DNA from: a virus
Lineage: Duplodnaviria; Heunggongvirae; Uroviricota; Caudoviricetes
Virus record (IMG/VR): IMGVR_UViG_2721755496_000005
Direction: 5' to 3' (one strand)
Length of the DNA: 37,317 nt
Positions within the stretch are counted from its first letter, which is position 1. Every line of letters starts with the position of its first letter. Shown here one piece after another: positions 8,830 through 37,317 of this stretch. A program made the translations under genes and the position numbers. Under the pieces are notes generated by a model. That model had not been told where the DNA came from. It saw nothing but the letters and a program-made list of their open reading frames with translations, and ran no database searches.

Positions 8830-10002
8830 TTACGCGCTGACCTGGCTGGCGAAATTCACCAGGTACTGATCGGTGATGCGCTGGCGCAGCATCAGATTTT
8901 CAAGTGGCGGCACTGGCGTGTAGTCGTAGTCGATGGTGAGTTTTCCGGCTTTAAGCGTGTCTTTGTCGTTCACCGACTCGTCCAGCCAGCAATCACCACC
9001 AATGAGATAGCCCTGACTGACCAGGTTGCGCATTTTGGCGCGGATACCTTCGATAATGTCGCGGGCCAGCGACGGGTTCAGCGGTTTGTCCACCGCCCAC
9101 ATATGCGCTTCTGCCATCGTGTCCATCAGTACCTGCGCCGTGCGGGTGTAGTTTTCGAAGGCAAAGAGCGGGTCATCACTCAGGCAGCGGGAACCCCAGA
9201 AGCGGAAACCGTCTTTGCGGATAAGCGTGGTGACGTCGTTCTGGTTAAGCAGTCCCGCATCGGTTGCCGGGTCCTGCAGATCCCAGAACACATCTGCAGA
9301 AATTCCGGTGACACCGTTCACGCCCACGTTGGACAGGCTTTTGTGCCACCCGGTCTGCTCATCAATTTTGGCGCGCAGACCAAGCGCACGGGCGGTGGCA
9401 TATGCCGTTGCTTCGGCATTCAACACCGTGTCCCAGCCAGTAAAGTCGGGCCAGATCAGCATTCCTTCGCGCTGGCTGAAGTTTTCACGGTAAGTGATCG
9501 CCTCCTGTACCGTCTTGCAGCCATACGCTGACAGGTAAGCAAACCCACGCAGGCTTTGCGCCACGCTCAGCAACTCAGTCGCAACGGCTTTGTTATCATG
9601 ACCTGGCACGCCGAGAATGCGCGGTTTAACGCCGAGCTGTGACTGGGCAGATAGCAGGGCTTTCATGCCTGTTTTTTTACCTTCAGCAGTCACAGCGCCG
9701 ATGATATTGGTCGTGGTTTCGTCTTCCGTTTCACCCTGCGGCACACGCACAACAACGGTCACGGGTTTTGCCTGGTCAGCGATGGCATCCAGCGAACGGG
9801 CCAGAGTACCGGACTCACCTGCTTTACCGCTGGCAGTCAGCACATCAGTGATCAGCACGGGTTTATTAAGAGGAAATATTTTTGCATCGGCATCATCGCC
9901 CGTGCAGACCATACCCACGATGGCGGTGCTCACCGTGGTAATGGATCGGGTGCCTTCGTTGACTTCAACAACGCGCACCCCGTGGTGGTAATCCTGAGCC
10001 AT
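8830..10002 (-). CDS. FI: Contractile tail sheath protein gpFI
   Basis: 390-aa ORF; size and position match P2 FI. Confidence 0.9.
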
Positions 10003-10078
10003 AGTGGCGAACCTCCTGATTGGATTAGGCTTCGCCCTATGTTGAAGTGATTGTGCCTGACAAACAGCTAAGCGCAGT

Positions 10079-10096
10079 TGTACCGTTATTCACACA
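10079..10096 (-). promoter_or_regulatory. Candidate Ogr-binding dyad (TGT-N12-ACA) of the late promoter for FI-FII
   Basis: tgt accgttattcac aca, centred about 85 bp upstream of the FI start codon; P2 late promoters carry this dyad. Confidence 0.45.
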
Positions 10097-10144
10097 AAAT
10101 GACGGTATTTGTCTGCTTGCAGGGATAATCAAAATAATGCTGAT

Positions 10145-10717
10145 TCAGGGAGATTCATTGCTCTTATTTGCCGGAAATTTTCTATAAATAGTAGAAACGC
10201 CTACATCAAAAATCAGTGCAATACGCTGTCTTGATTCTCCGGCCTCAAGTAAACGCCCAATCTGTGCCCACTGTTCGGTGGTCAACTTAGGACGGCGTCC
10301 ACCTACTCTGCCTTTGGCACGAGCTGCAGCCAGCCCTGCCCTGGTACGTTCAACTATCAGTTCGCGTTCCATTTCAGCCAGGGCACCCATAACATGAAAA
10401 AAGAAACGGCCCATTGGGGTACTGGTATCAATACTATCAGTCAGGCTTCGGAAATTCACGCCACGCTGGCGCAACTCTTCTATCAGCGTAACAAGATGCC
10501 GCATACTGCGCCCCAGTCTGTCCAGCTTCCAGACAACCAGAGTGTCTCCTGCCGATAGTGTCCTGAGCAGTTTTTTAAGCCCCGGTCTGTCGGACTTAGT
10601 GCCACTGATTTTATCCTCAAAAATCCGCTCACATCCCGCGCAGTTCAGTGCATTACGTTGCAAATCGGTGTTCTGGTCATTTGTTGACACGCGTACATAG
10701 CCAATAAGCATGAGCAT
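10145..10717 (-). CDS. Site-specific DNA invertase (Hin/Gin/Cin/Pin-type serine recombinase)
   Basis: GYVRVST-DQ catalytic N-terminus, LVVWKLDRLGRS and SLTDSIDTS-MGRFFFHVMGALAEMERELI motifs, C-terminal HTH; about 190 aa. Confidence 0.9.
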   Translation of the reverse strand: MLMLIGYVRVSTNDQNTDLQRNALNCAGCERIFEDKISGTKSDRPGLKKLLRTLSAGDTLVVWKLDRLGRSMRHLVTLIEELRQRGVNFRSLTDSIDTSTPMGRFFFHVMGALAEMERELIVERTRAGLAAARAKGRVGGRRPKLTTEQWAQIGRLLEAGESRQRIALIFDVGVSTIYRKFPANKSNESP

Positions 10718-10738
10718 CCCCCTGAATAAAAACCGGAG

Positions 10739-11122
10739 ATGATGCCAGTTAGCCGTTATCTCTGCATTTTCATAAACGTTGGTTTGGGAGAAGCCAGATA
10801 TGTCATTCAGCGAGGAGCTAATGCCAATGGTGCATGGATACGCTGGTCAGATGGTGCAATAGAAGTATTTGGAACCGGTGGATCTAATGATAATGGACTG
10901 GCTAAAGTTGTTTACCCAATTGCACTGCCTAAACTTTCACGTTTTATCAGTATCGCGGAAAGAATAAGAACGGATTACGAGAGCACACCTAATAATGTTC
11001 ACGTTTCAATGATCGTGGATGATCAGGTAACAAATACCGGCTTTTATGCCCGCTGCCAGATGTACGACGGCAGACCATCATCAAATGCTTTTTCCTGGAG
11101 GGTTTATTGTGCGCCTGTTTAA
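10739..11122 (+). CDS. Alternative tail-fibre C-terminal segment (Sv'-like), promoterless in this orientation
   Basis: ORF on the opposite strand to H, starting at the crossover site; both H and this ORF encode LGLGE across the shared core, so inversion would fuse it in frame to the constant part of H. Confidence 0.5.
   Translation: MMPVSRYLCIFINVGLGEARYVIQRGANANGAWIRWSDGAIEVFGTGGSNDNGLAKVVYPIALPKLSRFISIAERIRTDYESTPNNVHVSMIVDDQVTNTGFYARCQMYDGRPSSNAFSWRVYCAPV
10767..10792 (+). repeat. Invertase crossover site, invertase-proximal (hix/gix-like)
   Basis: TTTTCATAAACGTTGGTTTGGGAGAA matches the reverse complement of 12405..12430 at 22 of 26 positions, with the last 13 identical. Confidence 0.6.
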
Positions 11123-11306
11123 TCCAGTTACTTTGACTGAAGTAATCCCCGGTCTTCATGACGTGACCGGGGCTATTGAATTACCGGAGGACAATTGGTT
11201 TTTTACTATGACAGAAATTCCTCAGGGCATGGAGCTAACAATTAATGAGAAAGGCGAACCAATACTAATTGAGGTTAATCAGTCTCAGGGAATACAGGCC
11301 AAATAA
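11085..11306 (+). CDS. Short ORF in the position of an alternative tail-fibre assembly gene (U'-like); possibly truncated
   Basis: Follows the Sv'-like segment and converges on tfa; only about 66-73 aa against about 200 aa for a full Tfa; start uncertain (ATG 11085 or GTG 11109). Confidence 0.3.
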   Translation: MLFPGGFIVRLFNPVTLTEVIPGLHDVTGAIELPEDNWFFTMTEIPQGMELTINEKGEPILIEVNQSQGIQAK

Positions 11307-11883
11307 TATCAGGCGCGGTGCTGGTATCTGTTGCCGTCACCGCGTCAATGTAATCCAGCACCGTGTTAAGTCGGCTGGTTTCTGCCTGCGTCAGATTCCG
11401 TCCGGCCTGTAATTTCAGTTGAATCAGACTGATGGAAGCCATTGCAGTATCAATCAGCGACTGGCGTTGTGCTTCTGCTGCATCTACTGCGGCGCTATGC
11501 TGTGCCTCGGTATCCGTCACCCATTTCTCACCATCCCATTTATCGTATGGTGTTAACGGGGCGATAGTGGTTGTATTATCAGGGTAATCACCCGGAGCTG
11601 TGATTTCTTTTGATTCTCCTGTTTCGGTGCTAAAGACGATTTCACCGCGATGGTCTGGCACATATTCCCATGAGTTAAAATCTGCAGAACGGCAGATTGC
11701 ATAACCAGCCTTATGTGTGCCAGGAGCATCTAAACAGGAATATGCGGGGATACCGACACCCACAGCAAGATATTCAATTGATGCAGAAATATACTCCCGT
11801 GTCTCACTGTCATAGTTATAAACGGTAATCTCTCCTGCCTTTGTGGCAATAAATTTATTATTTAAGATAGCGTTATACATCAT
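11275..11883 (-). CDS. G: Tail fibre assembly protein (gpG / Tfa family)
   Basis: 202-aa ORF after H; C-terminal DTSTAPDIIWP motif resembles the conserved C-terminus of lambda Tfa-type chaperones. Confidence 0.82.
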   Translation of the reverse strand: MMYNAILNNKFIATKAGEITVYNYDSETREYISASIEYLAVGVGIPAYSCLDAPGTHKAGYAICRSADFNSWEYVPDHRGEIVFSTETGESKEITAPGDYPDNTTTIAPLTPYDKWDGEKWVTDTEAQHSAAVDAAEAQRQSLIDTAMASISLIQLKLQAGRNLTQAETSRLNTVLDYIDAVTATDTSTAPDIIWPVFPETD

Positions 11884-13466
11884 GCAGCCCTCACAATGTA
11901 ATTAAATGAAATATTACGTGGGCGTGTCTCTGCTGCACCGACAATACTGGTACTCAACCCCGTTGCCGTTCGTTTGTTATTTTTATTTCCTTCAATCAGA
12001 CAGTTGTAATCATCATTACCAATTAACGAATTGGTGGCATCAATACTGTCCGGGGACAAGGCATTAGTTGTGGAACTTAAAGTCAGCATCTCGTCTGAAC
12101 TTGGAAGATTTTTTAATGGTGTTTCATTGCGTGAAATACCCGCGTAAAAAAAGGACTCATGTCTGTGAGCTTCAAAAGAGTCATCCTGAAGACTTAACAA
12201 GGCTCGCCCCGCATCCACCCCGCGCCCATCATCCCATCCACGAATAAATTCACCGCGTAAATCAGGCAATTTATTTGTCGGGTAAGCCTTTGCCAGTTCC
12301 GGGTATTCTTCAGCAGAAAAAGCCGCACCATTGCATTTCAGCCAGCCTGTTGGCGGAGTGGCTGAAGGCCACGGAACAGGCACCCCAACAGGTAATGCTG
12401 AGCCTTCTCCCAAACCAAGGTATGTGAGAAGACCAGCTACATCCTTTCCACTCAAATTGGTAAGCGTATTGTCCAGCGGTTGTTTACCTGCCAGCGCATT
12501 CAGCATTGTCGTGGCAAAGTTCGGATCATTCCCCAGCGCCGCTGCCAGTTCGTTCAGTGTATCCAGTGCCGCAGGTGCAGAACCCACCATTGCCGCAATC
12601 GCCGATTTCACAAAAGCCGTAGTGGCAATCTGTGTATTGTTGACCGACTGCGCCGCCGTGGGGGCTGTTGGCGTTCCGGTGAGTGCCGGACTCGATAGCG
12701 GCGCTTTCAGTGCCAGCGCATTGTTAATGGTGGTACTGAATTTCGGATCATTGTTAATGGCTACGGCTATTTCTTTCAGCGTGTCCAGCGTGGCTGGCGC
12801 ACCATTAATAAGAGCCGTCAGTGCCGCCTGAACAAATGCGGTGGTCGCAACCTGCGTGGTATTATTCCCCGCCGCTGGCGTTGGCGCTTTGGGGGTTCCG
12901 GTAAACGTTGGACTTTCTTTGGGTGCATACTGTGAATGTGGGTCCGCTGCGGCAAGGTGTTTTGCCATTTGGTCATCCACATACACCTTCAGCTCCAGTG
13001 TCTTATCATCCACATACTTGCGAGTTGCCAGTACTACAGCAGGGTCGATTTTCAGGGTGATATTGTCCGTACTGCTGGTAATCAGCACCATGCGCACGGT
13101 CTGGGTGCGCCCGCTGCCTTCAGCCAGTTGCGGCTTATAGCTTTCCGGGCAGTTGCCCACGGCAATCAATGCCCCGGATTCATCATACAGGCCCACTTCA
13201 CGTATCCACCAACCGCCCTCGTTTTCAGGGATCACCTGTTCAGCAATAATCTGGCTGCTGTTCTGCGGGTCGATATAGAGCATATTCAGCGCAGCCCGGC
13301 GTTTCTCATTTACCAGTGCTGTCTGCTTTGCGTCCGGTGTTGGCAATGTTCCGCCGCCATCGCCGACCGCCATATGGGTAATTTTTAAAGGCACACCGAG
13401 CGCGGCGGCGCTGGCAAGTTTCGCCGCGCCAATATCCGTCAGCAGGGTATAAAATTTTGTGCTCAT
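11880..13466 (-). CDS. H: Tail fibre protein gpH (constant N-terminal part plus invertible C-terminal part)
   Basis: 528-aa ORF; N-terminus MSTKFYTLLTDIGAAKLA resembles P2 H; Gly/Ala/Thr-rich repeats; C-terminal ETRPRNISFNYIVRAA-type tip motif. Confidence 0.85.
   Translation of the reverse strand: MSTKFYTLLTDIGAAKLASAAALGVPLKITHMAVGDGGGTLPTPDAKQTALVNEKRRAALNMLYIDPQNSSQIIAEQVIPENEGGWWIREVGLYDESGALIAVGNCPESYKPQLAEGSGRTQTVRMVLITSSTDNITLKIDPAVVLATRKYVDDKTLELKVYVDDQMAKHLAAADPHSQYAPKESPTFTGTPKAPTPAAGNNTTQVATTAFVQAALTALINGAPATLDTLKEIAVAINNDPKFSTTINNALALKAPLSSPALTGTPTAPTAAQSVNNTQIATTAFVKSAIAAMVGSAPAALDTLNELAAALGNDPNFATTMLNALAGKQPLDNTLTNLSGKDVAGLLTYLGLGEGSALPVGVPVPWPSATPPTGWLKCNGAAFSAEEYPELAKAYPTNKLPDLRGEFIRGWDDGRGVDAGRALLSLQDDSFEAHRHESFFYAGISRNETPLKNLPSSDEMLTLSSTTNALSPDSIDATNSLIGNDDYNCLIEGNKNNKRTATGLSTSIVGAAETRPRNISFNYIVRAA
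12405..12430 (-). repeat. Invertase crossover site inside H (hix/gix-like)
   Basis: Minus strand TTCTCACATACCTTGGTTTGGGAGAA; inverted copy of 10767..10792; about 20 of 26 positions match the hixL sequence as recalled. Confidence 0.6.
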
Positions 13467-14068
13467 GGATTCACTCTCATTGTGTCAATAACATGGACCG
13501 CTCCGCCTTCATGCGCGGTGCCGCCAGAAATAATTGTTTCGTTGATATACGGATAGATCGTGATTTCTTCGCCAAGATAGCTGGCGGCCCCTACCCAATG
13601 CGGACCGCTGGTCTGCAGATTGATGGACATGCCGATCATGTGACGGCTACATGGTTTGGCATCGCTTATCAGTCGCTCAAGTTCCAGATAGGTATCTTCA
13701 GTAATGCCCTGGTCCTGCACGCCGATATCCAGGCGAAACGTGCCCGGTGCCTCTCCGGTCTGCCACCACTCAATAATGCGGATCAGAAAGCCGAACGGCT
13801 CCACCACCCGACGCACGGCACTGGTGGTCCCTTTATGCTGATGAATATAAAAAGCATCCTTCACCACCTGGCGCTTGACGCTTTCTGTCCAGCTCTCGTC
13901 CCAGCGATCCACAGAGAACGCCCAGGCGAGATAAGGCAGGAAACTGACCGGACAGGTTGCCGGATTCCACAAGTCACGCAGCGGCACCTGCAGATCAGAA
14001 ATCCCACTGCAGGTTTGCGCCAGTCGTCGCTCCAGTGAAGTTGAACCCGGTGTCAGCAGACTATTCAT
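13463..14068 (-). CDS. I: Baseplate protein gpI
   Basis: Position between J and H in P2 order; 4-nt overlap with H. Confidence 0.78.
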   Translation of the reverse strand: MNSLLTPGSTSLERRLAQTCSGISDLQVPLRDLWNPATCPVSFLPYLAWAFSVDRWDESWTESVKRQVVKDAFYIHQHKGTTSAVRRVVEPFGFLIRIIEWWQTGEAPGTFRLDIGVQDQGITEDTYLELERLISDAKPCSRHMIGMSINLQTSGPHWVGAASYLGEEITIYPYINETIISGGTAHEGGAVHVIDTMRVNP

Positions 14069-24737: not shown

Positions 24738-25799
24738 TTAATATTCAAAATTATTTTCTTCAATAGAGAACTCAATCCCTCGGGATAACTTATCAATATT
24801 CACATCAAATGCGATATCTGTTAATTCACCATCCTCGATTTCATACATAACTTCAATTTCAATATCGAAACTAATCTCTTGAACTTCAGTTCGTGTGGTT
24901 GTCTCCATTGGAATCATTACTTTATCTTCGCTATCCCAATACCCATTATTAAAGTCTGGACCAGAAACAGTAACTTCAAAATCTACAGAAACAGAGAAGG
25001 TCGCTAGACAATAATTATTGTCAATCTTAATTATTGATGGTTCAAAGTCATCAATATTGACGACTTCAAATGAATCCAATTCAGCGTCTTCCCAAGTTGA
25101 AACGTTATATCCATCGGCATCATTGAGTTGGGCAATTACGTCCGCTCTTATGTCTTCACGTTTGCTTTCGATAAACTGCATCAATTTATTACTTAATTCG
25201 TTTGTATGCGTATTGTATTCACCTAGAAACTTATCAAGTGAATCAATTTGATGAAGATTGTTTTTACCATCACAATAATTTTTTAAGTCACTATCCTCAG
25301 AAATGATATACACATCTTCATCATTAACAAATCGCTCTACCGCAGCTAAAGTGATTGCATCAGGAAACTCACTTTTTTTCTTATTTTGCCCAAATGGTGG
25401 TTCTTTGCCAAAGTATTTATCTAAAACCTCATTAAGATCTATCACTTCTATTGTAGCTAATTTGGCGTGACATCCTTTCAAAAAATCATCAAAAACTTTT
25501 TGTGCTGCTTCGTGAATTTCATGTTCGTTAAATTGCTGAAAAAAACCATGGAGCGGTCCATTATCAATACTATTCAAAAGCCTAGCTTTTCTTTGTACTG
25601 TGTTTATAGCCTGCAGAGCATCCTTTATTGATTCCTCTATTTTACCTTTTACTTCTCTCTCTACAACTGTAGTTGTAATTAAGACTAAATCACCTTTCGC
25701 ACATAATTCATGGAAAGCTTTAAATGCTACCCCCTCAAAATGAAGACCAGCCTTTACGTACGTTTGTGTGTCAATAAATACCTTATTTGTTTTAAGCAT
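24738..25799 (-). CDS. Cargo protein: putative PIN-like nuclease domain with a strongly acidic C-terminal half
   Basis: 353 aa in AT-rich DNA. The N-terminal half has acidic positions spaced like the PIN catalytic residues (D10, E47/E49, D147 in DAITLAAV, D169/D171 in YIISEDSD). The C-terminal half has repeated hydrophobic-acidic strand motifs such as FDIEIEV and FDVNID. Confidence 0.5.
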   Translation of the reverse strand: MLKTNKVFIDTQTYVKAGLHFEGVAFKAFHELCAKGDLVLITTTVVEREVKGKIEESIKDALQAINTVQRKARLLNSIDNGPLHGFFQQFNEHEIHEAAQKVFDDFLKGCHAKLATIEVIDLNEVLDKYFGKEPPFGQNKKKSEFPDAITLAAVERFVNDEDVYIISEDSDLKNYCDGKNNLHQIDSLDKFLGEYNTHTNELSNKLMQFIESKREDIRADVIAQLNDADGYNVSTWEDAELDSFEVVNIDDFEPSIIKIDNNYCLATFSVSVDFEVTVSGPDFNNGYWDSEDKVMIPMETTTRTEVQEISFDIEIEVMYEIEDGELTDIAFDVNIDKLSRGIEFSIEENNFEY

Positions 25800-33908: not shown

Positions 33909-34505
33909 ATGTCAACATCAAAGTACCCAAATGAGATCAAAATAAATCCCAATAAAGGTGGTAAGGCTGCGATTGAGCGATTAGTCGAAGCTTATGGCTT
34001 TACGACACGACAGGCTTTAGCTGATCACTTGGAAGTATCAAAAAGCACTCTGGCGAACAGGTATTTGCGGGATACGTTTCCTGCAGACTGGATAATCCAA
34101 TGTGCTCTTGAAACAGGAACCTCACTGAAATGGTTAACCACCGGGCAAGGCCTTAAGCAAAGCTCGCTGACAGCAGCTACAGAAGAGCTTGCCAAGTTTC
34201 GCCTTACCGCAGGCAAAATGATTGAAGATGGTTCATATGTCTTCGATTCATCATTTCTTCCTGCAAATCTTTCATCACCAATTGTTATTCAGGATGGGCT
34301 CGTCACATACATTTGTGATCAAAAATTTTCTGAAGTACTTGATGGGCACTGGTTAATCAACATCGACGGAACCTATTCCATTCGAAAAATCACAAAGCTT
34401 CCAAAAGGTATGATTAAAATTACAAGTACAGAGAATAGCTTTGAATGTGCATTTTCTGATATTGAAGTAGTTGCTTGTATAAGAAGTACAATAGTTTCAA
34501 ATTAA
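33909..34505 (+). CDS. cI: Immunity repressor, 186 CI-like
   Basis: 198 aa; the pattern EAYGF...LA-H...S-LANRY...CALETG-SLKWLTTGQG resembles the 186 CI N-terminal domain as recalled. Confidence 0.7.
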   Translation: MSTSKYPNEIKINPNKGGKAAIERLVEAYGFTTRQALADHLEVSKSTLANRYLRDTFPADWIIQCALETGTSLKWLTTGQGLKQSSLTAATEELAKFRLTAGKMIEDGSYVFDSSFLPANLSSPIVIQDGLVTYICDQKFSEVLDGHWLINIDGTYSIRKITKLPKGMIKITSTENSFECAFSDIEVVACIRSTIVSN

Positions 34506-34525: not shown

Positions 34526-36202
34526 ATGAATTCATTTTCCATCGTTATATTCTTATTAGCATTTCTCGCCCCCATTCTAGCTGTAATATTATTTAAGCAA
34601 AGCAAAAAACATAAAGCGGCTATAGATACCTTGACAGCTAACAACATAGCCCTTTCCAACCAACTGAAAGAAAATCAAGAAGAATTAGCACAGACTGTAC
34701 GAGATCTATCAGAGCTTGAAGGACGAGCTGCACCATTATGGCAATACGTAGAATTGCACAGCGCAGTGATGGAAGCAGAGAATAAGATAAAAAATGCAGA
34801 CTCAATAGCCAGGCAAAAAATAGAAGAAGCCCAAATAAAGGCTGCTAAGACAGTAAACGAAGCAAATTATCAAGCTCAGATAAAAATAAGCAACGCTAAT
34901 AGCGAAGCTATAGCAATTACTAAAGACGCTCGCGATGCACGCCTGAAAGCTAAAGAACGTCTTGATAATGCCAATAGTAAAGCAAATGAGCTGATCTCAA
35001 ATGCTAATGACAATGCAGTGAAAATTATTTCCGATGCAGAAGAAAGAGCAAAAGAGATTGCTGGTTCAGCATATGAAGCTAAAGAGTTTGCAGAAAAATA
35101 TGAAGCAGTTGCCAAATCAATGAAAAATAAAATTGAAGGTTATGGTGATGAATGGATCATCCCTAACCGTAGCGTTCTCGATGAATTGGCAGAAAATTAT
35201 GAGTTTACAGATGCAGGCAAGGAATTACAAAAAGCCAGGGAGTTAACAAAATCATTAATAAAAACTAATAAAGCTGCTTCGTGTGATTATGTTGAACAAA
35301 ACAGGCGTAATACTGCTATCAACTTTGTTTTAGATGCCTTCAATGGAAGAGTTGACAGTATTTTATCAAAAGTCAAACACAACAATTTTGGAAAACTTTC
35401 CCAAGAGATAAAAGATGCGTTTCAACTTGTAAATTACAATGGTTCTGCCTTTAGGTCCGCAAAAATAAGTGACATCTATCTTCAAGCTCGACTCAACGAG
35501 CTAAAATGGGGTGTTGCAGTTAATGAAATTATGCTCGAAGAAAAAGAAGAGCAAAGAAGGATTAAAGAACAACTTCGTGAAGAGGAAAGAGCTCGTAGGG
35601 AGTATGAAAAAGCGATAAAAGAAGCTGAAAAAGAAGAGAAAGCTATTCAGCAAGCTATAAATAAAGCAACAAAAGAGCTTATGCTTGCAAATGAAGAACA
35701 ACGCTTAGCTTTAGAGCAAAAAATAGCTGAACTACAGTTAAAATATGAAGAAGCTGAAGCTAAAAACCAACGAGCTATTTCTATGGCTCAACAAACTAGA
35801 TCAGGCCACGTTTATATAATTAGTAATATTGGCTCATTTGGCGAAGATGTATATAAAATTGGAATGACACGCCGCCTTGAACCACTTGATCGTGTTCGTG
35901 AACTCGGTGATGCTAGTGTTCCTTTTTCGTTCGATGTTCATGCGATGATTTATAGTGATGATGCACCATCATTAGAAAATCATCTGCATAAAGTCTTCAA
36001 CGAAAAACAGGTCAATAAAATTAACTCACGAAAAGAGTTTTTCAACGTAAATATTAAAGAAATTAAGTCTGTTATTGAAGATATGAACATCAACGCACAA
36101 TGGACAATGTTTGCGGAAGCGAAAGAATATAGAGAGTCACTGGCGATTGAGCAAGAGCGCAAAGCAGCAACTTCCGCCAACGATGAACTGCATGTTGCTT
36201 AG
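34526..36202 (+). CDS. Cargo protein: N-terminal transmembrane helix, long coiled coil, C-terminal GIY-YIG-like (T5orf172/MUG113-type) domain
   Basis: 558 aa in AT-rich DNA, 21 bp after cI with AAAGGA RBS; hydrophobic N-terminus, about 380 aa of heptad-like Lys/Glu/Ala-rich sequence, then GHVYIISN...YKIGMTRR...R-x3-E-L...N. Confidence 0.6.
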   Translation: MNSFSIVIFLLAFLAPILAVILFKQSKKHKAAIDTLTANNIALSNQLKENQEELAQTVRDLSELEGRAAPLWQYVELHSAVMEAENKIKNADSIARQKIEEAQIKAAKTVNEANYQAQIKISNANSEAIAITKDARDARLKAKERLDNANSKANELISNANDNAVKIISDAEERAKEIAGSAYEAKEFAEKYEAVAKSMKNKIEGYGDEWIIPNRSVLDELAENYEFTDAGKELQKARELTKSLIKTNKAASCDYVEQNRRNTAINFVLDAFNGRVDSILSKVKHNNFGKLSQEIKDAFQLVNYNGSAFRSAKISDIYLQARLNELKWGVAVNEIMLEEKEEQRRIKEQLREEERARREYEKAIKEAEKEEKAIQQAINKATKELMLANEEQRLALEQKIAELQLKYEEAEAKNQRAISMAQQTRSGHVYIISNIGSFGEDVYKIGMTRRLEPLDRVRELGDASVPFSFDVHAMIYSDDAPSLENHLHKVFNEKQVNKINSRKEFFNVNIKEIKSVIEDMNINAQWTMFAEAKEYRESLAIEQERKAATSANDELHVA

Positions 36203-36285: not shown

Positions 36286-37317
36286 ATGGCAGTACGAAAA
36301 CTCACCACAGGAAAATGGCTTTGCGAATGTTACCCCGCCGGACGTAGTGGACGTCGTGTGCGTAAACAATTCGCCACCAAAGGCGAAGCTCTGGCTTTTG
36401 AGCGTCACACGATGGAAGAAACCGAAGCAAAGCCCTGGCTGGGTGAATCAGTGGATCGTCGAACACTGAAAGACGTGGTTGAACTATGGTTCAAACTACA
36501 TGGTAAATCTCTGACAGCTGGGCAGCATGTCTATGACAAATTGCTGTTGATGGTTGACGCTCTGGGCAATCCCCTTGCAACCGATCTCACCTCTAAAATG
36601 TTTGCCCACTATCGAGATAAACGTCTGACAGGAGAGATCTACTTCAGCGAAAAATGGAAGAAAGGAGCAAGCCCGGTCACCATTAACCTGGAGCAAAGCT
36701 ATCTAAGTAGTGTTTTTAGCGAACTATCCCGCCTGGGCGAATGGTCGTATCCGAACCCACTGGAGAACATGCGAAAATTCACCATCGCAGAAAAAGAGAT
36801 GGCATGGCTTACCCATGAGCAGATTGTTGAATTGCTGGCTGATTGCAAACGTCAGGACCCAATTCTGGCACTGGTAGTTAAGATATGCTTAAGCACAGGC
36901 GCACGTTGGCGTGAAGCCGTAAATCTTACCCGCTCACAGGTGACCAAATACCGAATTACCTTTGTAAGAACGAAGGGGAAGAAAAACAGAAGCATCCCTA
37001 TCAGTAAAGAGCTTTACGAAGAGATCATGGCGCTTGATGGGTTCAATTTCTTTACAGACTGCTATTTTCAATTTTTATCCGTGATGGAAAAAACGTCTAT
37101 CGTGCTCCCTCGCGGTCAACTGACACACGTTCTGCGCCATACGTTTGCGGCGCACTTCATGATGTCGGGTGGAAATATCCTGGCCTTACAAAAAATTCTC
37201 GGGCATCACGATATAAAAATGACTATGCGTTACGCACATCTGGCACCGGATCACCTGGAAACTGCATTACGGTTTAATCCGCTGGCAACACTACCAACAT
37301 CAATAGCAAGTTTTTGA
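36286..37317 (+). CDS. int: Tyrosine integrase (P2/186 family)
   Basis: 343 aa; C-terminal catalytic region with LTHVLRHTFA...HHDIKMTMRYAHL (R, H-x-x-R, Y); stop codon is the last triplet of the window. Confidence 0.9.
   Translation: MAVRKLTTGKWLCECYPAGRSGRRVRKQFATKGEALAFERHTMEETEAKPWLGESVDRRTLKDVVELWFKLHGKSLTAGQHVYDKLLLMVDALGNPLATDLTSKMFAHYRDKRLTGEIYFSEKWKKGASPVTINLEQSYLSSVFSELSRLGEWSYPNPLENMRKFTIAEKEMAWLTHEQIVELLADCKRQDPILALVVKICLSTGARWREAVNLTRSQVTKYRITFVRTKGKKNRSIPISKELYEEIMALDGFNFFTDCYFQFLSVMEKTSIVLPRGQLTHVLRHTFAAHFMMSGGNILALQKILGHHDIKMTMRYAHLAPDHLETALRFNPLATLPTSIASF

Follow-up and report, generated by a model that had tools for sequence, protein, structure and literature searches.

Organization of the locus

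The locus occupies positions 10145 to 13466 of the window, which is the whole stretch of 37,317 nucleotides that was analyzed. Its layout is Mu-like: the constant part of the tail fiber gene H, a crossover site, the variable end of H with tfa, a small ORF with a second fiber end, another crossover site, and an invertase gene. The features are as follows.

10145..10711, minus strand: DNA invertase, 188 aa, small serine recombinase of the Pin/Gin/Cin/Hin type
10622..10693, minus strand: candidate recombinational enhancer (sis), within invertase codons 7-30
10767..10792, minus strand: crossover site 1, invertase-proximal; the minus strand reads TTCTCCCAAACC AA CGTTTATGAAAA, with the crossover dinucleotide at 10779-10780
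10793..11122, plus strand: Sv', silent alternative C-terminal 109 aa (phrog_2557, 2.8e-22)
11109..11306, plus strand: small ORF, 65 aa, GTG start after GGAGG (phrog_5400, 1.4e-25, profile positions 1-66 of 145)
11275..11883, minus strand: tfa, 202 aa, assembly protein of the current tip (Caudo_TAP, 5.5e-32; phrog_105, 2.3e-97)
11880..12404, minus strand: Sv, current variable C-terminus of H, codons 355-528 (Pfam Collar, 1.3e-14, aa 361-408)
12405..12430, plus strand: crossover site 2, in H codons 350-354 (LGLGE); TTCTCCCAAACC AA GGTATGTGAGAA, with the crossover dinucleotide at 12417-12418
12431..13466, minus strand: Sc, constant N-terminal part of H (Phage_tail_fib N-terminal domain, 3.7e-65, aa 1-150)

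Taken together, these features very probably constitute a site-specific inversion switch of the Gin/Pin type in the tail fiber operon of an intact P2-like (Peduoviridae) Escherichia coli prophage integrated beside ybjL.

Invertase and candidate enhancer

The invertase gene lies outside the invertible segment and is transcribed away from it. As proposed in the original prediction, it has the tail sheath gene FI (8830-10002) on one side and the fiber genes on the other; its product is intact, with a Resolvase domain (Pfam, 2.3e-53) followed by HTH_7 (1.5e-15). The ORF reaches an upstream ATG at 10717 (10145-10717); the annotation of RefSeq relatives and the alignment with Gin indicate that the ATG at 10711 is most likely the start. 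The protein matches the DNA invertase family phrog_125 (1.5e-101) and the sequence of the Mu Gin structure 3UJ3 (E = 8e-93 over 184 aa), and over 180 aa it is 86.7% identical to e14 PinE, 79% to P1 Cin, and 76% to Mu Gin. The catalytic residues Ser9, Arg7, and Arg42 are present. In Hin, contacts with Fis and the enhancer have been assigned to the basic helix-B residues 47, 48, and 51 together with Gln151, Arg154, and Leu155 (PMC3798978), and their counterparts Lys46, Lys47, Arg50, Gln150, Arg153, and Leu154 (numbering is that of Hin minus 1) were all found. The gene differs from those of its relatives at 16 to 17 synonymous and 2 to 3 non-synonymous codons and appears to be under purifying selection.

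The stretch corresponding to codons 7-30 aligns without gaps to the annotated enhancer of P1 cin (AF234172, 31678-31749; cin nucleotides +19 to +90), with identities of 56/72 to P1, 63/72 to e14 pinE, and 52/72 to Mu gin, and this homology makes it a candidate enhancer. In the inferred register, the putative Fis-binding 15-mers are GTGTCAACAAATGAC (10690-10676) and GCGCGGGATGTGAGC (10641-10627), which are 49 bp apart; the corresponding spacing in Hin is 48 bp. Synonymous-codon conservation among five invertase genes peaks in codons 1-30 (0.56 to 0.62 vs 0.47 overall), a modest trend that ordinary 5' constraints could also produce.

Crossover sites

Two inverted 26-bp sites that resemble hix and gix had been predicted, and both are present on re-inspection. 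On the plus strand, positions 10767-10792 read TTTTCATAAACGTTGGTTTGGGAGAA and positions 12405-12430 read TTCTCCCAAACCAAGGTATGTGAGAA. The two sites are reverse-complementary at 22 of 26 positions (23 of 27 with one extra base) and form the longest inverted repeat within 9900-13600. They have 2 and 1 mismatches to the hix/gix/cix consensus TTCTCNNAAACCAAGGTTTNNGAGAA; no other match to this consensus occurs in the 37-kb window, and none was obtained in 100 shuffles. Both conform to the structure of sites in this family, i.e., two imperfect 12-bp inverted half-sites with a shared asymmetric 2-bp core, and they have in common the exact 15-mer CTTCTCCCAAACCAA, made up of the inner half-site plus the core. 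The core is TT at 10779-10780 and AA at 12417-12418, and the sites are therefore truly in inverted orientation. The crossover centers are 1638 bp apart, which defines the invertible segment and refines the earlier estimate of roughly 1.65 kb. No third crossover site was found when at most 3 mismatches were allowed against the 26-mer consensus or the 15-mer, and a shufflon-like system such as that of one enteropathogenic E. coli (EPEC) P2-like prophage was rejected.

Site 2 spans codons 350 to 354 of H, in agreement with its predicted position at about codon 350. Site 1 lies, again as predicted, at the head of an opposite-strand ORF (the orphan ORF, 10739/10742-11122), of which the first 18 codons are a leader plus the site and the body is now Sv'. 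The proposal that both sites encode LGLGE is correct for H, whereas the opposite-strand ORF reads N-V-G-L-G-E, so that only GLGE is common to them. Because the codon for L or V extends across the boundary between the outer half-site and the core, the fused fiber retains L. In several Klebsiella P2-like phages, DNA similarity to the window ends exactly at 12405.

Expressed and silent fiber cassettes

Sc is colinear in both orientations among related genomes and is expressed from the late operon whichever the orientation. In the window it continues into Sv, an e14 StfE-type tip that is colinear in sequence with the product of e14 stfE, and is followed by tfa, whose product is near-identical in sequence to e14 TfaE and equivalent to Mu U and P2 G. 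When the segment was inverted in silico, Sv' joined codons 1-354 of H in frame to give a protein of 463 aa, as expected from the predicted exchange of the H C-terminus together with tfa. In the annotation of genomes that have the flipped orientation, this 463-aa product appears as a phage tail protein.

Sv' scores 19.1 bits (E = 0.002) against the Pfam family Gp53-like_C (PF21882), which is under the gathering cut-off of 24.9 bits; the tips at the same position in e14 (StfP), Cartapus, and 500465-1 score 58.7, 57.4, and 24.2 bits, respectively. Sv' is probably a divergent member of this family. A sequence search of the PDB with Sv' gave no meaningful match.

The 65-aa ORF lies downstream of Sv', in the position of Mu U'. 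The description of this ORF as short and U'-like stands in that it resembles the N-terminal domain of Tfa, but the conserved C-terminal domain is absent. With Caudo_TAP, the ORF gave no Pfam match, and it ends without the C-terminal motif DTSxAPDIxWPxxP. The family phrog_5400 is also matched by the N-termini of genuine Tfa proteins (Cartapus U', 6e-10; e14 TfaP, 3e-4). An hhalign comparison of the 65-aa family with full Tfa was weak (an 18-residue motif only, at a probability of 7%), and the link to Tfa is thus based on the shared PHROG. The family, of 57 to 65 aa, is conserved in Escherichia, Enterobacter, Salmonella, Citrobacter, Hafnia, Xenorhabdus, and Erwinia, and the ORF differs from its relatives by 0 non-synonymous and 1 to 2 synonymous changes. 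A PDB sequence search with this family gave no meaningful match, and the single-sequence structure model of the ORF was of poor quality (pLDDT 50.8). In a DNA search of deposited phages, the cassette of Sv' and the small ORF gave a single weak match, to phage S164; its known occurrences are mainly in prophages.

The conserved C-terminal domain of Tfa is thought to drive trimerization. Since the chaperone-like ORF is unusually short and lacks this domain, the second fiber might assemble poorly. We tentatively consider that the ORF belongs to a conserved minimal class of Tfa or adaptor proteins that have the tip-binding N-domain only and, as a related and similarly doubtful possibility, that the orphan ORF is surface-active in lysogens. 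A minimal Tfa may act without the trimerization-linked domain, either alone or with that domain supplied in trans from another Tfa.

Inversion among related genomes

At a coverage of at least 80%, complete E. coli genomes were found in both the orientation of the window (n = 39) and the flipped orientation (n = 23). Three genomes, WAT, O111:H21 15A, and NCTC8623, match the form flipped in silico colinearly along its full length (100%). Strains 61 and 64 have flanks that are 100% identical (8794 and 9095 nucleotides) and differ by inversion of the segment alone, with breakpoints inside the 15-mer, and the same was observed in a second clonal E. coli pair, DG343-1 and DG341-1. In an untrimmed overlap at the ends of the NCTC8623 record, two copies of the locus are found; they have opposite orientations and flanks with 0 mismatches, which implies a mixed culture. 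These inversions at the core were observed in prophages near-identical to that of the window. Inversions in EPEC P2-like prophages have been demonstrated by whole-genome sequencing and PCR (PMC4272514), and at the P2 Z/fun locus an invertase and inversion of adjacent genes are often seen (bioRxiv 10.1101/2024.10.15.618418).

The breakpoints are resolved only to the identical stretch of 15 bp, which by itself names no enzyme, and general RecA-dependent recombination at short inverted repeats might be put forward as the cause of these inversions. However, 15 bp is far below the length at which RecA recombination is efficient, the half-sites and core of the repeats are those of canonical sites of the invertase family, and the cognate invertase is 68 bp away. 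In addition, the same repeats in e14 are locked in pinE mutants (PMC12529663). We therefore regard an origin through RecA as extremely improbable and attribute the inversions to the invertase.

It could also be supposed that the window contains a fossil switch, with inherited repeats and invertase, in which recombination has been lost and the orientation is frozen. Both the window and its sole 99.9% relative show one and the same orientation, and the chaperone ORF of the second cassette looks truncated. On the other hand, the invertase retains all catalytic and regulatory residues and shows substitutions biased toward synonymous ones, both sites are intact, and inversion distinguishes prophages with the same sites in clonal isolates and even in a single assembly. 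A frozen locus is accordingly very unlikely, and the switch is almost certainly active in this prophage.

Comparison with known inversion systems

Inversion by Gin, Cin, Pin, and Hin is textbook material. One of the closest counterparts of the present locus is the P segment of e14, a cryptic prophage of E. coli K-12, with PinE. In addition to the similarity of the invertases, site 1 is identical at 26 of 26 positions to the site upstream of pinE in MG1655, the crossover 15-mer is shared, and the half of the segment carrying the StfE-type tip and the TfaE-type assembly protein is closely related. The chaperone genes converge with a 3' overlap in both (32 nt here and 29 nt in e14). Inversion driven by PinE and PinQ at the 15-mer inverted repeat of e14 has been measured by qPCR (PMC12529663). 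However, e14 is a defective lambdoid remnant, whereas the window holds a complete P2-like prophage with a constant part of the P2 H type. The second cassette of e14 consists of the StfP tip and a TfaP of 137 aa in place of the divergent Gp53-like tip and the 65-aa N-domain-only Tfa-like ORF, and its segment is 1797 bp rather than 1638 bp.

The G segment of Mu has an identical order and orientation (Sc, gixL, Sv-U, U'-Sv', gixR, gin, with gin transcribed away), and the spacing from site 1 to the start of the invertase equals that from gixR to gin. The Mu segment is longer (approximately 3 kb) and encodes U and U' at full length (175 and 177 aa), its gix sites have the core GA instead of AA, and the tips and the constant part of the fiber are unrelated to those of the window. 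The C segment of P1 and P7 also switches tail fiber tips, and its Cin resembles the invertase in the protein as well as in the enhancer stretch, but cin is transcribed towards the segment, cixL overlaps the 3' end of cin, and the segment is approximately 4.2 kb.

In other P2-like elements (the prophages of EPEC E2348/69 and the phages 500465-1, Cartapus, and KP12) and in carotovoricin Er, the invertase is likewise located between the fiber cassettes and FI, and the site sequences are identical, with swappable pairs of cassettes. The tip and chaperone cassettes of these elements are different from those of the window, and one of the EPEC prophages carries three sites, with four variants, in contrast to the two sites found here. 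Hin of Salmonella, which acts on 26-bp sites and has its enhancer within the 5' part of its own gene, is of the same invertase subclass (PMC3798978); unlike the present case, hin is inside its segment, and inversion moves a promoter for flagellin genes without exchanging a coding C-terminus. Systems of this kind are already well described, and the mechanism holds nothing new.

Proposed mechanism and biological implications

By analogy with the Hin/Gin family, dimers of the invertase would bind the two 26-bp sites and form an invertasome together with host Fis on the enhancer in the 5' end of the invertase gene. Cleavage of all four strands at the AA/TT dinucleotide in the middle of the sites would be followed by a 180-degree turn of one subunit pair, and religation would leave the 1638-bp segment flipped. 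The constant 354 codons of H would always be transcribed by the late operon. In the orientation of the window, H would run on into the StfE-type tip (174 aa) with the assembly protein Tfa, whereas in the other orientation it would run on into the 109-aa Gp53-like tip with the 65-aa protein that resembles the N-terminal domain of Tfa. A lysogenic population would hold both forms and release virions with two receptor specificities.

No part of this system is missing or damaged, the alternative fusion keeps the reading frame, and near-identical prophages invert at exactly these sites. By analogy with the family, switching would depend on Fis and the enhancer. The precedent of Mu and P1 suggests that the outcome would be a change in host range. 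The host-range switch originally proposed is supported in each of its elements, including a flipped form in other genomes. A switch of this type would account for the release of particles of two receptor specificities by a single prophage.

A benefit to the lysogen, besides or instead of host range, would require that the orphan ORF be expressed and that one form mask outer-membrane receptors against phages. The ORF (10739-11122) is built like e14 stfE/StfE2, with a homologous leader (MMPVSRYLCIFINVGLGE vs MPFACYFFIFINVGLGE) followed by a tip domain, and it is annotated as a gene in RefSeq. In e14, the chimera of the leader and the StfP tip (StfE2) blocks adsorption of T2, as reported by Kirigo et al. 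(PMC12529663). However, Sv' shares only some 24% identity with the StfP tip, and GGAG lies just 0 to 3 nt from the ATGs of the orphan ORF. A scan of 9900-13600 yielded 4 promoter-like sites (4.9 expected), all of them located elsewhere than upstream of this ORF, and 3 terminator-like sites (3.7 expected), with neither count above expectation. The prophage also looks complete, and a function in the virion is sufficient to explain the locus. We consider a role in the lysogen unlikely and retain the exchange of fiber tips on the virion as the probable function of the switch.

The practical value of these results is in correct annotation. Assemblies of such strains catch an arbitrary orientation, with the result that the fiber gene is annotated as either 528 or 463 aa and the leftovers of the other cassette as "hypothetical."

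Prophage setting and architecture of the switch

A nearly complete P2-like (Peduoviridae) prophage of E. coli, integrated beside ybjL, makes up the window, and strain Z1323HEC0423 shares 99.9% identity with it across the region studied. The late genes and the elements of the switch are arranged as follows.

Genes and sites of the invertible tail-fibre region
11880-13466, minus strand: H, tail-fibre gene, a late gene following J and I
12405-12430: site 2, 26-bp crossover site inside H
11275-11883, minus strand: tfa, tail-fibre assembly protein gene, a late gene following H
11109-11306, plus strand: 65-aa ORF, in the position of Mu U'
10739-11122, plus strand: orphan ORF containing site 1 and Sv' (10793-11122), the silent alternative C-terminus
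10767-10792: site 1, 26-bp crossover site on the invertase side
10145-10711, minus strand: invertase gene, after tfa and before FI
8830-10002, minus strand: FI sheath gene, then FII, E/E', T, U, D, and ogr

The original prediction placed a Hin/Gin-family invertase between FI and the tail-fibre genes, and the minus-strand order H, tfa, invertase, FI and the Resolvase and HTH_7 domains of the protein bear this out. Between the invertase stop codon and FI, upstream of the latter, lies the dyad TGTGTGAATAACGGTACA (10096-10079, minus strand). P2 late promoters that depend on Ogr typically have its TGT-N12-ACA form, and it resembles one of them, P_F. The invertase gene thus lies where P2 has its Z/fun hotspot, at which a DNA invertase with adjacent inverted genes is frequent according to a survey (bioRxiv 10.1101/2024.10.15.618418).

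Read along the minus strand, the constant part of H is followed by site 2, the currently expressed C-terminus (Sv) with tfa, the 65-aa ORF and Sv' on the opposite strand, site 1, and the invertase gene. This layout is colinear with Sc / gixL / Sv-U / U'-Sv' / gixR / gin of Mu, and the spacing from the site to the invertase start codon is equal to that in Mu; in P1, unlike in the window, the invertase gene (cin) points toward the segment. On sequence grounds, the switch is closest to the e14 P segment, whose pinE-proximal upstream site is identical to site 1 (26/26) and whose StfE and TfaE are closely related to the Sv tip and the tfa product. The locus is of a textbook kind, the counterpart in a P2 prophage of the e14 P and Mu G switches, and experiments have already shown such switching in P2-like prophages of E. 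coli: sequencing and PCR demonstrated inversion in those of EPEC E2348/69 (PMC4272514). The invertible tail-fibre segment (10145-12430), proposed to act as a host-range switch, was correctly identified and well interpreted, yet the kind of system was already known.

Crossover sites

Reinspection of the repeats confirmed that sites 1 and 2 are reverse complements at 22 of 26 positions (23 of 27 with one extra base), and the pair is the longest inverted repeat within 9900-13600. The predicted resemblance to hix/gix sites also holds, as the hix/gix/cix-type consensus TTCTCNNAAACCAAGGTTTNNGAGAA is matched with two mismatches by site 1 and one by site 2, at no other place in the 37-kb window, and in none of 100 shuffles. 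The inner half-site and core, the 15-mer CTTCTCCCAAACCAA, is identical between the two sites, and no third copy of it was found. In e14, an inverted repeat of this same sequence is where PinE- and PinQ-driven inversion has been measured (PMC12529663). An asymmetric dinucleotide forms the core of each site, TT at 10779-10780 in site 1 and AA at 12417-12418 in site 2, so the sites are truly inverted with matching cores, the arrangement that ligation after a 180-degree rotation would require.

Site 2 corresponds to codons 350-354 of H (LGLGE), in agreement with the predicted position at about codon 350. Both sites had been said to encode LGLGE; GLGE is indeed common to them, whereas the orphan ORF, on the strand opposite to H, reads NVGLGE, with Val in place of the Leu found only in H. 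Since the first base of this codon comes from the outer half-site, the recombinant fibre would retain Leu. When the segment was swapped in silico, the C-terminus of H was exchanged as anticipated, giving an in-frame fibre (H') of 463 aa with 354 constant and 109 new residues, compared with 528 aa for the fibre in the present orientation.

Several Klebsiella P2-like phages, Kp4860-7 among them, resemble the window at the DNA level over 12405-13500 only. The match ends exactly at the crossover site, and phages therefore seem to swap whole tip cassettes at that boundary.

Invertase and candidate enhancer

The invertase probably starts at ATG 10711, which is preferred because RefSeq relatives annotate it and because of the alignment to Gin. 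The crystal-structure sequence of Mu Gin matches it across 184 residues (E=8e-93), and over 180 aa it is 86.7%, 79%, and 76% identical to e14 PinE, P1 Cin, and Mu Gin, respectively. The protein retains R7/R42 and the catalytic serine S9, together with K46, K47, and R50 of the basic helix B and Q150, R153, and L154 of helix 1; the helix-B and helix-1 positions are specific to Fis/enhancer-dependent invertases (McLean et al., PMC3798978). Codon differences from 96%-identical relatives are 16-17 synonymous and 2-3 nonsynonymous.

In the P1 record, the enhancer of cin is annotated as nt +19 to +90 of the gene. Its gap-free counterpart in the window, 10693-10622, is identical at 56 of 72 positions (63/72 for e14 pinE and 52/72 for Mu gin over the same stretch). 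Two 15-mers in it, GTGTCAACAAATGAC (10676-10690) and GCGCGGGATGTGAGC (10627-10641), have G at -7 and C at +7 and are candidate Fis sites. By the inferred register these lie 49 bp apart, as against 48 bp for Hin. The interval between them includes ATTTG and TAATG, which correspond to the ATTTA and TAATG minor-groove contacts of the Hin enhancer (PMC3798978). Among five divergent invertase genes, synonymous-codon identity is highest in codons 1-30 (0.56-0.62 versus 0.47 overall). These features are suggestive, short of proof, of a recombinational enhancer in the 5' part of the gene.

Natural inversion

The flipped form was built in silico and complete E. coli genomes were searched at a coverage of at least 80%; 39 carry the orientation of the window and 23 the flipped one, the latter as single colinear alignments over 100% of the length in WAT, O111:H21 15A, and NCTC8623. 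Between strains 61 and 64 (Switzerland), the flanks (8794 and 9095 nt) are 100% identical and only a 1691-nt segment is inverted, with the alignments overlapping inside the 15-mer at each end. DG343-1 and DG341-1, whose chromosome records are each 5,067,659 bp, show the same inversion-only pattern. Among the matches listed, opposite orientations also occur within the same lineage, in M7424/M00057 versus M11957 and in 82.0311 versus 82.0312, and between E. coli W and its derivative HBUT-L. A frozen relic is thus unlikely, since the parts are intact and near-identical prophages flip. That the inversions arise from RecA recombination on 15 bp is implausible, as the cognate invertase adjoins the repeats and the e14 segment is reportedly locked in pinE mutants (PMC12529663).

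In NCTC8623 (NZ_LR134234.1), the prophage lies at both ends of the record (1-22,000 and 4,921,000-4,943,400). The flanks of the two copies differ by indels only (0 mismatches), and frameshifts abound in one of them; the RefSeq "complete" chromosome thus carries an untrimmed circular terminal overlap of about 22 kb. The invertible segment is opposite in orientation between the copies, which indicates that the culture used for sequencing contained both forms.

E. coli W and its derivatives carry a related prophage with an IS3-family insertion inside the matched stretch (tail sheath to H), and genomes of this lineage are deposited in both orientations despite the insertion. The W-type prophage is also present in two records labelled "DH5alpha", each about 4.83 Mb long.

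Silent cassette

By profile comparison, Sv' is divergently related to the Gp53-like_C tip family, to which the e14 StfP tip belongs as well; its score of 19.1 bits falls short of the Pfam cut-off, versus 58.7 bits for StfP, and it matches phrog_2557 (2.8e-22). The orphan ORF, next to the invertase gene, joins this silent tip to an 18-codon leader homologous to that of e14 stfE. StfE2, the product of the inverted form of stfE, is reported to block phage T2 adsorption (PMC12529663), and it is conceivable that the orphan ORF likewise benefits the host, a role compatible with the switch, to which the shared build of the two genes is the one pointer.

The predicted short U'-like ORF stands by position and N-domain homology but without the conserved Tfa C-terminal domain: the Pfam domain search did not identify the 65-aa ORF as a Caudo_TAP protein, and it matches positions 1-66 of 145 of phrog_5400 (1.4e-25), a profile also matched by the N-terminal parts of genuine Tfa proteins (Cartapus U', 6e-10; e14 TfaP, 3e-4). 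Its family members are 57-65 aa long, with length and many residues conserved across several Enterobacterales genera, and the E. coli relatives compared differ by synonymous changes only. Running convergently, tfa and this ORF overlap by 32 nt at their 3' ends (11275-11306); the corresponding overlap is 29 nt in e14 tfaE/tfaP and in the U/U' pairs of Cartapus and 500465-1.

Other genes

Further genes of the prophage
33909-34505: CI repressor gene
36286-37317: integrase gene, running off the window end
24738-25799, minus strand: PIN_12-domain protein, 353 aa
26267-27844, minus strand: 525-aa protein bearing an LA2681-like HEPN domain, plus a TPR match that is faint and below threshold

Between the CI repressor and integrase genes, a 558-aa protein (34526-36202, plus strand) with DUF4041 and T5orf172/MUG113 domains matches the anti-phage system PD-Lambda-1 (PADLOC, 4e-120). 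The PIN_12 and HEPN genes, for which no PADLOC system matched, are cargo of the hotspot between the portal gene Q and the replication gene A. In Z1323HEC0423, the closest relative, a P-loop NTPase replaces the HEPN protein.
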